From Clostridia bacterium (GTDB lineage: Bacteria > Bacillota > Clostridia > UMGS1810): a stretch of DNA of 25,396 bases. Each line of letters opens with the position of its first letter. Within the stretch, counting starts at the first letter, position 1. Location: positions 1 to 25,396 of the forward strand of contig JAZSJF010000139.1 of the NCBI GenBank assembly GCA_045534195.1, in the 5' to 3' direction. Positions 14,151 through 17,264 of this stretch are shown here, one piece after another. Made by a program: the position numbers and the translations under genes. Under the pieces are notes generated by a model, which was not told the DNA's origin, did not search any database, and was given only the letters and a program-made list of their open reading frames with translations.

Positions 14151-14855
14151 ATGAAACCAAAGTACAAAAGAGTTCTTTTGAAATTAAGCGGAGAGGCACT
14201 TGCAGGTCCTAAAGGCTTCGGTCTTGATACGGAAACCATATCAGAAATTTCCAAAACTATCAAGGAATGTGTAGATATGGGTGTGGAAATCTGTATCGTA
14301 GTGGGCGGCGGCAATTTCTGGAGAGGCAGAACAGGAGAATCTATGGACAGAACAAGAGCAGACCATATGGGTATGCTTGCAACTGTTATCAACTCTCTTG
14401 CTATGCAGGATGCTCTGGAAAATGTGGGTATTCCTACAAGAGTGCAGACTGCTATAGAAATGAAACAGATTGCAGAACCGTACATAAGAGGTAAGGCAGA
14501 AAGACATCTGGAAAAAGGCAGAGTGGTAATATTCGGTTGCGGAACGGGAAATCCGTTTTTCTCCACAGATACTGCAGCAGCATTAAGAGCAGTGGAAACA
14601 GGTTGCGAAGTAATCCTTCTTGCAAAGAAGGTAGACGCTGTATACGACAGTGATCCTAACATCAACCCGAGTGCAAAGAAATATGACAAACTCAAATTTA
14701 TCGATGTGCTTAATCAGGGCCTTGGTGTAATGGATTCCACAGCATCCACACTTTGTATGGACAACAATATTCCTATCAGAGTATTTGGTCTTGATAATCC
14801 TGACAATATCAAGAAAGTGCTTCTTGGCGAAGAAATCGGCACATTGGTATATTAA
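14151..14855 (+). CDS. pyrH: UMP kinase
   Basis: [47 protein letters not shown]. Confidence 0.97.
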
Positions 14856-14878: not shown

Positions 14879-15433
14879 ATGGCTACAAATTTAGAACAGT
14901 TTGAAACCAGAATGGGAAAAGCAATACAGAATCTTGAAAGTGAATATAATTCTATCAGAGCAGGCAGAGCAAATGCGGCAGTTCTTGACAAAATCACTGT
15001 AGAATACTATGGTGTGGCATCACCTCTTGCAACAATCGCAAGTGTAAGTGTACCTGATGCAAGAACACTTCTTATCCAGCCCTGGGATGCTTCTATTCTT
15101 TCAGAAATAGAGAAATCTATCCAGAAATCAGAACTTGGTATCAATCCAACCAATGACGGTAAGGCAGTAAGACTCAACTTCCCGCCTCTTACAGAAGAAA
15201 GAAGAAAGGAAATCGTAAAAGATGTTTCCAAAAAGGCAGAAGCAGCAAGAGTTGCAGTGAGAAATATCCGTCGTGATGCTATGGATTATTTCAAAAATCA
15301 GAAGAAGGCAAATGAAATTACAGAAGATGATCTGAAGGCAGCAGAAAAGGATACACAGACACTTACAGATAAGTATATCAAGATGATAGACGATGTATGT
15401 AGTAAGAAGGAAAAAGAAATCCTTTCCGTGTGA
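14879..15433 (+). CDS. frr: Ribosome recycling factor
   Basis: IRAGRAN, GINPTNDG..VRLNFPPLTEERRKEIVK, RVAVRNIRRDA, KEKEILSV. Confidence 0.97.
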   Translation: MATNLEQFETRMGKAIQNLESEYNSIRAGRANAAVLDKITVEYYGVASPLATIASVSVPDARTLLIQPWDASILSEIEKSIQKSELGINPTNDGKAVRLNFPPLTEERRKEIVKDVSKKAEAARVAVRNIRRDAMDYFKNQKKANEITEDDLKAAEKDTQTLTDKYIKMIDDVCSKKEKEILSV

Positions 15434-15726
15434 GGAATGTAAAAAAAGTCCATACCGTAAAAAAGGCAAGGACAGTATATAAGTGTATCATAAAAGATAA
15501 ATAAAATAATAAAAATATTAAGGTGGAAAACATTGCCATAAAGCGCAATGTTTTCTTCTTTTTTTGTGCCTTTTTTACTACGAACAAGCCTCACCTCTCG
15601 GCGTATCACATACGCCTTCGGGAGGACCTCACTCCGTTCGGTTTCGTGTTGTCCGTTCTGAACATTTTTTCCTATTCCTCAGAAATTCGCGATGCACAAG
15701 CACAGCGTCGGTTCAGTTTGTCCAAT
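15433..15726. repeat. Dispersed structured intergenic element, copy 2 (long form)
   Basis: Same ordered blocks as 108-300, with about 90 extra nt between two TCGG tetramers (about 15622-15707). Confidence 0.8.
15526..15564 (+). terminator. Intrinsic terminator-like hairpin inside repeat copy 2, downstream of frr
   Basis: GAAAACATTGC...GCAATGTTTTC 11 bp perfect stem followed by TTCTTTTTTT. Confidence 0.7.
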
Positions 15727-15824
15727 CCAAGGCGTTTTTTCTCCCTCTTACAGTTCTTCCAAATGAACTAAACTGCAGACATAAAAGTCTTCCCTGCTAA
15801 AATTATTAATCGTGAAATTTTGTG

Positions 15825-15853
15825 TTGCTAAAAAATGTTTTTTGGTGTATAAT
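15825..15853 (+). promoter_or_regulatory. sigmaA promoter of the candidate sRNA
   Basis: TTGCTA-17 bp-TATAAT. Confidence 0.6.
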
Positions 15854-15858
15854 AAATC

Positions 15859-16013
15859 TGCGCACAACAATTATATATCGAATACAAACGACAATTCAGG
15901 TGCATTGTAAAAAATGTACGTACTCTTACAACGGAATTGTCTTATTTGTATTCTTTTGTTGTGCGCAAAAAGAGTCGTATGTTTTTAGCGTCGGTTCTTC
16001 CGGCGCTTTTTTT
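15859..16013 (+). ncRNA. Candidate small RNA or leader: 109 nt rod plus intrinsic terminator, family not recognised
   Basis: Nested perfect stems 15859-70/15956-67 (12 bp), 15880-88/15945-53 (9 bp), 15890-97/15934-41 (8 bp), 15905-10/15926-31 (6 bp); begins 5 nt after a -10 box; terminator AGCGTCGG-TTCTT-CCGGCGCT-T run at 15987-16013. Confidence 0.6.
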
Positions 16014-16029
16014 AATGGAGGGGTTAACT

Positions 16030-16311
16030 ATGTATACACTCGGCGAAGATATGGTTTACTATATTTATTCCAGACAAAAAAAGACGATTGAACTGGACAA
16101 ATGGCGGGATCGGGAATATGCCAAATATTATACTCGTCTGAATGAATGTATAGAAAATCTGAGAAAAGAACTTACTCCCCCGCAGGAGGAACTTATGGAG
16201 AATCTCCTTTCTGCAATGCGCACATTCAACGATTACAATGAGTTCAGAAGATTCGGCAACGGTATGAGATGTATGCATGATTTCAGTGAAAATCTTAAAG
16301 ATAACTATTAA
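16030..16311 (+). CDS. Small helical hypothetical protein (93 aa), loosely resembling DUF6809-type proteins
   Basis: SD GGAGGGG 16017-16023 then ATG 16030, in frame with track ORF 15937; amphipathic helices; F..G...M ending. Family call is tentative. Confidence 0.6.
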   Translation: MYTLGEDMVYYIYSRQKKTIELDKWRDREYAKYYTRLNECIENLRKELTPPQEELMENLLSAMRTFNDYNEFRRFGNGMRCMHDFSENLKDNY

Positions 16312-16320
16312 TAATTTCAA

Positions 16321-16362
16321 AAAACTTGTCAGAATGGGACTGTTCCAAAAATGACAAGTTTT
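16321..16362 (+). terminator. Hairpin after the orphan ORF with GGGACTGTTCC core
   Basis: AAAACTTGTCA...TGACAAGTTTT 11 bp perfect stem followed by ATTTTT. Confidence 0.6.
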
Positions 16363-16412
16363 ATTTTTGCCGTATAACAAAATATGAATGCCGTTATTTT
16401 TACATCTCTATC

Positions 16413-16441
16413 TTGCAGTTCTTTATATTTTATTGTATAAT
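16413..16441 (+). promoter_or_regulatory. sigmaA promoter of uppS operon
   Basis: TTGCAG-17 bp-TATAAT. Confidence 0.6.
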
Positions 16442-16517
16442 ATATTTAATAATGTGCATTTTTTGTTTTGTGCATCAGATAAAGTTACAACTCACAGAAT
16501 CTTTTTGGAGGACGGAT

Positions 16518-17264
16518 ATGTTTAATATTTTTAAAAAGAAACATCTTTCACAGAAACTCGATATGTCAAATATTCCAAACCACGTTGCGGTTATTATGGA
16601 CGGCAACGGCAGATGGGCAAAAAAGAGAGGACTTCCCAGAAGTGCAGGGCATGTTGTGGGAGCGAAAAATCTCGAAAAAATCATTCAGTATGCAGGAGAT
16701 ATCGGTATAAAGAATATCACTCTTTACTGTTTCTCTACCGAAAACTGGAAAAGGCCAAAAGACGAAGTAAATGCTCTTATGAATCTTTTTGTCCAGTATA
16801 TGCACGATTATGATAAACTTATGGGTGACAAAAAGGCGAGAGTAAGATTCTTAGGCACAAGAGAGGGCATTGATCCTGAAATATGCGCTTTGATGGAAGA
16901 AGTAGAAAAGAAATCAGAATTAAATGATGAACTTAATGTAAACCTTTGTTTGAATTACGGCGGAAGAGAAGAACTTGTAAACGCTGTGAAACTTATTGCA
17001 GAAGATGTGGCATCGGGAAAAATAAACCCGGATGATATTACAGAAAAGGATATCAACGACCGACTCTACACTTCATTTGCTCCCGATCCTGATCTTATCA
17101 TAAGACCAAGCGGAGAACTTCGTCTTTCAAATTTCCTTCTCTGGCAGTGCGCTTACAGTGAATTCTGGTTTTCTGATATTCTCTGGCCTGACTTTGTGCC
17201 AAAGAGAATGGAAAAGGCTATTATAGATTTTCAACAGAGAAACAGAAGATTTGGGGGAGTTTGA
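16518..17264 (+). CDS. uppS: Undecaprenyl diphosphate synthase (isoprenyl transferase)
   Basis: HVAVIMDGNGRWAK, FSTENWKRP..EV, NYGGREE, IIRPSGELRLSNFLLWQCAYSE. Start set at ATG 16518 after GGAGG rather than 16326. Confidence 0.95.
   Translation: MFNIFKKKHLSQKLDMSNIPNHVAVIMDGNGRWAKKRGLPRSAGHVVGAKNLEKIIQYAGDIGIKNITLYCFSTENWKRPKDEVNALMNLFVQYMHDYDKLMGDKKARVRFLGTREGIDPEICALMEEVEKKSELNDELNVNLCLNYGGREELVNAVKLIAEDVASGKINPDDITEKDINDRLYTSFAPDPDLIIRPSGELRLSNFLLWQCAYSEFWFSDILWPDFVPKRMEKAIIDFQQRNRRFGGV

Follow-up and report, generated by a model that had tools for sequence, protein, structure and literature searches.

A rod-shaped leader RNA between frr and uppS of a Clostridia bacterium, a probable transcription attenuator of a widespread family

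Introduction

The gap between frr and uppS in the window (the whole stretch of DNA analysed, 25,396 nucleotides long) contains a long hairpin that is preceded by a promoter and followed by a terminator and a small gene. The question raised by this locus is whether the hairpin belongs to a functional RNA and, if so, whether this RNA acts by itself or upon the gene behind it. The original prediction, made from the DNA letters, left several readings side by side: a discrete sRNA of ~155 nt, an attenuator or a protein-binding leader that gates an orphan ORF. Comparison with homologous loci indicates that the hairpin is a real conserved leader RNA of the + strand. We consider it fairly likely that the region is a cis-acting + strand transcription attenuator, a short-rod and divergent member of a large Clostridia leader family absent from Rfam 15.

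Position and structure of the leader

The leader is located inside the frr-uppS gap, where the frr terminator and a dispersed repeat precede it (Table 1). Its promoter, predicted as TTGCTA-17-TATAAT, is present with 10 of 12 consensus matches and ranks first among the promoter-like sites of 15300-16600; neither hexamer varies among five homologous leaders. The predicted transcription start (~15859-15860) coincides with the base of the rod, and the first paired base follows the end of the -10 element by 5-6 nt, a distance also seen in other copies. The MFE of the 15855-16013 region is -54.8 kcal/mol versus -28.8 +/- 3.2 kcal/mol for 200 dinucleotide shuffles (z = -8.2), none of which equalled it, and the rod of 109 nt was found as described. 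Helices of 12, 9, 8 and 6 bp had been proposed for it; the first three are recovered (11-12, 9 and 8 bp), whereas the last comprises 7 bp and not 6. The GC-rich terminator with its T run just before the SD is also present: its stem consists of 8 pairs, 6 of them G-C, with a 5-nt loop and seven U behind it (terminator scan). The distance from the terminator is 11 nt to the SD and about 16-17 nt to the ATG.

Table 1. Features of the leader and its surroundings (positions in the window).
Feature	Position	Strand	Description
pyrH	14151-14855		upstream of frr
frr	14879-15433		followed by a 600-nt gap
frr terminator	15525-15556		terminator scan
Dispersed repeat	15552-15690		~125 nt, within 15433-15726
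Promoter, sigma-A type	15825-15853	+	-35 TTGCTA 15825-15830, 17-nt spacer, -10 TATAAT 15848-15853
Rod hairpin	15859-15967	+	109 nt; MFE, compensatory changes in paralogs, recurrent layout
P1	15860-15870 with 15956-15966, plus U15859-A15967	+	11-12 bp
Asymmetric internal loop	between P1 and P2	+	9/2, in rod
P2	15880-15888 with 15945-15953	+	9 bp
Internal loop	between P2 and P3	+	1/3, in rod
P3	15890-15897 with 15934-15941	+	8 bp
Apical hairpin (P4)	15900-15906 with 15913-15919	+	7 bp; A-rich 6-nt loop 15907-15912
3'-side bulge	15920-15933	+	below apical hairpin
Spacer with U run	15968-15986	+	U run 15982-15986; strand common to AAT and AT
AAT, 5' strand	15910-15927	+	A run of apical loop, 3' strand of apical hairpin, CUCUU bulge
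AAT, 3' strand	15970-15986	+	spacer and its U run
AT, 5' strand	15970-15982	+	spacer
AT, 3' strand	15988-15999	+	5' strand of T and loop
Intrinsic terminator (T)	15987-16013	+	stem 15987-15994 with 16000-16007, loop 15995-15999, U run to 16013
SD GGAGGGG	16018-16024	+	ORF analysis
93-aa ORF	16030-16311	+	ATG at 16030, stop ends at 16311; divergent DUF6809 protein, predicted all-helical
Hairpin with T-rich tail	16324-16369		3' of the 93-aa ORF, read from the sequence
uppS, cdsA, dxr			3' of the 93-aa ORF, in this order

The gene behind the leader had been called an orphan, which proved to be wrong: its 93-aa product scores above the gathering threshold of Pfam DUF6809 (PF20648; E = 6.7e-7, 30.5 bits, cut-off 27). 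It can be assigned to a divergent DUF6809 subfamily that has several copies per genome in this genus. Canonical DUF6809 members reach 80-93 bits, occur in mobile-element contexts and are not preceded by the leader. AlphaFold models the 93-aa protein as three helices (pLDDT 75). Foldseek returned no structural relatives from the PDB, only noise was obtained with PHROGs and NCBIfam, and no mention of DUF6809 was found in the literature searched. It was considered that the ORF might extend N-terminally through the terminator, since upstream frames are open in several homologs. This candidate was rejected: the conserved terminator is read in differing frames, and each ATG has an SD of its own. As the frames differ across the homologs, the conservation of the leader does not come from coding, and the leader RNA is judged to be non-coding.

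A hairpin formed by ACTTGTCA ... TGACAAGT and followed by a T-rich tail is located 3' of the 93-aa ORF. It is likely the terminator of this gene, although the terminator scan did not call it (its stem has too few G-C pairs). If so, promoter, leader and ORF would constitute a self-contained insertion between frr and uppS. The dispersed repeat between the frr terminator and the leader promoter has at least 24 BLAST matches in its own genome; many of them lie at contig ends, so that the repeat probably breaks the assembly. Both sister species and several other families of the class contain copies with 70-92% identity, and the repeat has no Rfam match.

Alternative helices of the window copy

Besides the rod and the terminator T, two further helices can be formed by the leader: an anti-antiterminator (AAT) between the rod apex and the spacer, and an antiterminator (AT) between the spacer and the terminator (Table 1). 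The apical hairpin shares a strand with AAT, AAT shares one with AT, and AT with T. Five segments thereby make up four mutually exclusive helices arranged in a chain. The AAT of the window comprises 16 bp with a 2x1 internal loop and has an energy of -17.2 kcal/mol (RNAduplex; z = -4.8, 0 of 200 shuffled spacers equal). The AT, which occupies the homologous position, comprises 12 bp (4 of them G-U) with -8.2 kcal/mol (z = -1.5, 14 of 200 shuffles equal), and T has -11.4 kcal/mol.

The energies of the complete states are -54.3 kcal/mol for rod with T, -47.8 for rod with AT and -39.1 for AAT with T. When the 5' strand of the rod is left out, AAT with T is the MFE structure. For a polymerase at the end of the U tract (16013) that covers 10 nt, the remaining free RNA has rod with AT as its MFE structure. 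By nearest-neighbour terms the AAT state lies 15 kcal/mol above the rod state. For AAT to form, a rod-opening factor would thus be needed, or else the geometry of a pseudoknot, which is not scorable with these tools.

Conservation and covariation

In both other species of the genus the whole unit, promoter through ORF, is syntenic with 73-74% identity. The identity between species is distributed unevenly: 95% from the apical loop to the terminator (spacer included), 82-84% in the promoter, 74-79% in the 5' half of the rod and 66-67% in the ORF. The 3' half of the leader is nearly invariant because each of its segments is constrained by several partners.

The leaders fall into about ten sequence types (A and A2, B, C, D, E, F, G, H, I, J), several of them from related genomes. 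Each type has its own pair of AAT sequences, for example AAAAAUGCAAAUUCC with GGAGUUUGCGUUUUU in type D, AAAAACAUUGGUCUC with GAGAUCGGUGUUUUU in type B and AAAAUACCGGCUUU with AAGGCCGGUGUUUU in type E, and the pair always maps to the A run and to the 3' side of the apical hairpin. AAT was assessed by duplex calculation for each leader, since a single model aligned the apical regions of non-D types at low posterior probability. The energies across types are from -15 to -24 kcal/mol with z from -1.7 to -6.3, most of them below -3. Each type also has its own AT, with -13 to -23 kcal/mol outside type A. AT of types A and A2, which comprise the window and its relatives, shows no variation that bears on the pairing. 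A matrix of swaps between types was not cleanly diagonal; it is only partly informative, as the G/U-rich spacers pair promiscuously.

The type-D alignment comprises 19 sequences. P1 of the rod, the apical hairpin and T are 89% paired in it with 17 two-sided pair changes, and none of 500 shuffles was equal. AAT is 98.6% paired versus 28-60% in slid controls, with one-sided changes only and with the pairing kept. AT is 96.2% paired versus 25-51% in slid controls, and a U-A to A-U swap is present in three sequences. The sequences of AAT and AT have been replaced about ten times in a compensated manner, which is strong comparative evidence that both are real. Both extra helices, spacer with apex and spacer with terminator, are kept by compensatory change across the types. 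The original prediction had named a lack of conserved pairing in homologs among the outcomes that would speak against it. The opposite is seen, with compensatory changes in P1 and P3 and with AAT and AT preserved.

The balance between AT and T differs among the types. AT is more stable than T by 1-6 kcal/mol in types B-F, most type-D leaders included; T is favoured in some leaders of type D and in types G, H and I. In types A and A2, to which the window copy belongs, T is more stable than AT by 4-6.5 kcal/mol.

Strand and nature of the element

The minus strand of the 15855-16013 region folds as well as the plus strand. The fold alone therefore gives no strand; this is given by the orientation of the promoter and terminator together with the G-U pairs of the homologs. 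In close paralogs P1 changes from GCGCAC/GUGCGC to GCACGC/GCGUGC or GCAUAC/GUAUGC, and P3 from GACAAUUC/GAAUUGUC to CAGGG/CCCUG, compensatory changes in both helices. The G-U pairs of these paralogs would be A-C mismatches on the opposite strand. Owing to G-U pairs, AAT and AT of the window are each weaker by ~5 kcal/mol on the minus strand. Despite the equal fold, a minus-strand RNA was rejected on the orientation of promoter and terminator and on the G-U pairs.

The equal folding of the two strands would also be compatible with an inverted repeat that acts at the level of DNA, namely a miniature mobile element, an invertible switch of cwpV type or a cruciform, beside which the promoter and terminator would be coincidental. 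The rod indeed sits between a promoter and a gene, as do the invertible switches (cwpV type) of Clostridioides difficile, and the family often precedes surface-protein genes in other genomes. This explanation is nevertheless extremely improbable. The pairing extends along the whole element and is not limited to its ends; in paralogs of unrelated sequence the structure is preserved, G-U pairs included; AAT and AT are G-U rich and specific for the + strand. Moreover, BLAST finds only four copies in the own genome, each of them with a promoter, a terminator and an ORF, and the frr-uppS gap contains no ORF of at least 60 aa besides the 93-aa gene (ORF list). A cwpV-type switch in particular was rejected: the whole element is paired, with G-U pairs and compensatory changes, and no ORF of recombinase size is present in the gap.

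Distribution of the family and its cargo

A unit of promoter, rod, spacer, terminator and ORF precedes every divergent-DUF6809 paralog examined, namely those of three genomes (three species) of the genus and of two genomes of another genus. The rod sequences are unrelated and the layout is the same: a TATAAT-type -10 element (often TG-extended), the rod 5-7 nt further on, a short spacer, five or six U, a GC-rich terminator with U tail, SD and ORF. The four leader copies of the own genome are that of the window and those of contigs C312 (cut by the contig end), C346 and C249. It had been proposed to check by BLASTN whether paralogs always precede similar small ORFs; in the own genome all four stand before DUF6809-like ORFs. 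The 37 leaders analysed agree without exception in their layout: above P1 lies a large loop on the 5' side or a three-way junction, then an upper stem, a bulge on the 3' side and the apical hairpin. The rod itself is 107-109 nt long in the window versus 140-165 nt in type D; types B, C, E, H and I are near the length of the window copy.

A covariance model was built from the 19 type-D copies only and includes no type-A sequence. It matches the window over its full length (15841-16013, + strand) with 26.1 bits and E = 0.0035 in 48 kb; this score is modest, noise reaches at most 19 bits, and both the calibration and the E-values are rough, with no curated threshold. Other non-D paralogs are matched with E = 2e-5 to 1e-3. 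At E <= 1e-6 the model is found in 33 of 150 (22%) sampled genomes of the class, belonging to 24 of 108 genera, and a single genome may carry as many as 13 copies. Among 401 sampled genomes of the class, 145 contain the spacer motif of type D, ATCGGAGTTTGCGTTTTT, when up to 2 mismatches are allowed, and the match is often exact; the reversed motif, used as a control, gives far fewer hits. The genes behind the copies of ATCGGAGTTTGCGTTTTT type are diverse and encode lipoproteins, secreted and LRR proteins and small membrane proteins. In the genus of the window the cargo is almost always a divergent DUF6809 gene. In nearly all copies examined, the U run is followed at a distance of 15-110 nt by an SD and a co-oriented ORF; in another genome, two copies lack any ORF within 200 nt. 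Judged by layout, model match and helix overlaps, the window element is a short-rod, divergent member of a leader family widespread in gut Clostridia.

The leader had been described as unrecognised, and this holds for Rfam 15: neither the window nor eight further loci of the family gave a match at gathering score, and permissive searches returned chance miRNA-like matches with E > 0.1. The best of them was a plant miRNA precursor model with 22 bits versus a gathering score of 120. The gathering thresholds of 6S RNA, T-box and the known riboswitch classes in Rfam 15 were not reached. The family was not found in the literature searched by keyword and by motif string. The SLH motif (Stav et al. 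2019, PMC6429828) was considered and set aside as a separate motif with a different distribution.

The leader as a transcription attenuator

From the mutually exclusive helices and from the fixed place of the leader before genes we infer that the helices act as a switch, as well as the direction of this switch. Transcription from the strong promoter would start the RNA at the base of the 109-nt rod. As long as the rod and its apical hairpin are closed, the spacer would be free to form AT, and the polymerase would read through into the DUF6809-like gene. If the apical hairpin is opened, or if it is invaded by the spacer with the single-stranded A-rich loop and CUCUU bulge as points of entry, AAT would sequester the spacer. 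T could then fold, and an RNA of ~150 nt would be released. The attenuator named in the original prediction is the best fit to the data: a co-oriented ORF with an SD lies directly 3' of the leader, and the spacer is complementary both to the rod apex and to the terminator, with compensated changes in both pairings.

AT of the window copy is weak relative to T. This copy is thus probably OFF-biased, so that termination would be the default and the ~150-nt RNA is expected to be abundant, probably as the main product. The short RNA of the original prediction is in this sense still expected, even though attenuation fits best. It is possible to go further and to regard it as a stand-alone sRNA (15860 to ~16013) that acts in trans, with the spacer or apical loop pairing to other RNAs, perhaps to the apices of sister copies, and with incidental read-through into the ORF. 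The strong promoter and the strong terminator would suit such an RNA, as would the preference for T in the window and the conservation of the RNA, which is far higher than that of the ORF. The U run directly 5' of the terminator hairpin and the U7 tail 3' of it resemble, together with this hairpin, the Hfq-binding module of enterobacterial sRNAs. Leaders of the same type within one genome have identical apical and spacer sequences, so that pairing in trans is possible. Tandem arrays in which every unit has its own promoter and terminator, as well as the two copies lacking a nearby ORF, point in the same direction. We nevertheless regard a purely trans-acting sRNA as unlikely. An SD and a co-oriented ORF follow nearly all copies examined, the complementarity of AT is conserved and covarying, which a plain sRNA does not need, and AT is more stable than T in most types, which implies that read-through is built in. 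The two roles do not exclude each other.

Binding of the leader by the downstream protein, another suggestion of the original prediction, is not likely to be the general rule, because leaders of this family also stand before unrelated genes elsewhere. General autoregulation by the DUF6809-like protein was rejected: the leader also stands before genes of lipoproteins, LRR, secreted and small membrane proteins, and canonical DUF6809 genes lack it.

Another explanation concerns the way in which AAT forms. The leader might be a riboswitch that senses a ligand or a protein, with AAT as a tertiary pseudoknot: the rod would bend at its asymmetric loop, and the bound factor would choose between the pseudoknot and the apical hairpin. 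The 5'-side loop or three-way junction above P1 and the 3'-side bulge below the apical hairpin, common to all leaders analysed, could serve as a hinge. Single-stranded toeholds, namely the A-rich loop and the bulge, flank the strand to be displaced on both sides, and AAT alone is much stronger than the apical hairpin (about -6 kcal/mol). A hinge at the asymmetric loop may make the geometry of such a pseudoknot possible. However, no conserved unpaired pocket was identified in the leaders, the hinge loops are A/U-rich with a sequence that varies even among orthologs, and the downstream genes are too diverse to indicate a metabolite. A sensing riboswitch of this kind is accordingly quite improbable.

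Returning to the attenuator, a broader interpretation may be put forward tentatively, and we hold it to be possible rather than likely. The leaders would constitute a modular class of riboregulators with a conserved five-segment switch, in which copy-specific rods answer either a trans RNA of their own or a shared rod-opening factor. Spreading of the cassette would place accessory genes under one signal, in the present case genes of small DUF6809-like proteins.

Among the structured leaders of the gut and rumen Clostridia sampled, this family is one of the more frequent ones. The genes that it controls, or that it at least stands in front of, are accessory, and many of them encode surface and secreted proteins. 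The window copy demonstrates that the length of the rod is not fixed (109 nt). Subtypes that favour AT or T represent natural ON-biased and OFF-biased variants suitable for experiments. The identity of the signal, if found, would explain the regulation of a class of accessory genes in many uncultured Clostridia.

Comparison with known systems

The logic of the proposed attenuator is known, while the family is new to Rfam and to the literature searched. The S-box/SAM-I platform and the pyr leader of Bacillus subtilis, bound by PyrR, are terminator/antiterminator/anti-antiterminator leaders of Firmicutes. They have in common with the present leader an own promoter, an intrinsic terminator just before the gene, an AT strand and an AAT strand further upstream. 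In contrast to them, the present leader has no match to their Rfam families and contains a fourth layer, as the 5' strand of AAT is locked in the apical hairpin of a rod of 90-165 nt. Its cargo is also diverse, with no single pathway evident.

The chain of overlapping hairpins resembles the trp leader of E. coli (1:2, 2:3, 3:4), where occupancy of the first segment decides the fate of the last. Unlike the trp leader, the rod contains no leader peptide and its reading frame is not conserved; the number of segments is five instead of four. Pairing of a distal loop with a strand adjacent to the terminator, in competition with the expression platform, is shared with the ZTP, fluoride and preQ1 pseudoknot riboswitches. 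The long-range helix of the present leader differs from theirs in its length of 15-16 bp and in that it must displace a hairpin; no conserved ligand pocket was identified in the leader and no match to their Rfam models was obtained. Compared with typical members of its own family (type D), the window copy has the same layout and the same overlaps of helices. It differs from them by a short rod, by its own (type A) AAT and AT sequences and by a weak AT.

Individual copies of the leader

One of the copies in the own genome (G000:C249:4330-4470), a type E leader, is located directly behind a gene whose end resembles sigma-70 region 4. The ORF that follows this leader runs for at least 109 aa up to the contig end without a stop and matches DUF6809 weakly; the AAT of the copy (AAAAUACCGGCUUU with AAGGCCGGUGUUUU) is wholly unlike that of the window.

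Tandem arrays of two or three leaders are present at L139 (G148:C6:110960-111700) and L141 (G099:C14:12040-12430). Each unit of these arrays has its own consensus promoter and terminator and a different type of AAT; an ORF, coding for a small protein, follows only the last unit.

At L029 (G002:C57, 1625-1855, minus strand) a duplicated type-A2 leader with the truncated start of a DUF6809-like ORF lies just upstream of an intact leader-ORF unit. This arrangement suggests that the cassette of promoter, leader and gene duplicates as a block. Degenerate copies were observed at L088 (G174:C3) and L062 (1564-1677, G002:C50). Both have lost most of the rod but keep an intact 3' end of P1 as well as spacer and terminator. 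These copies are still located after a promoter and before a small gene.
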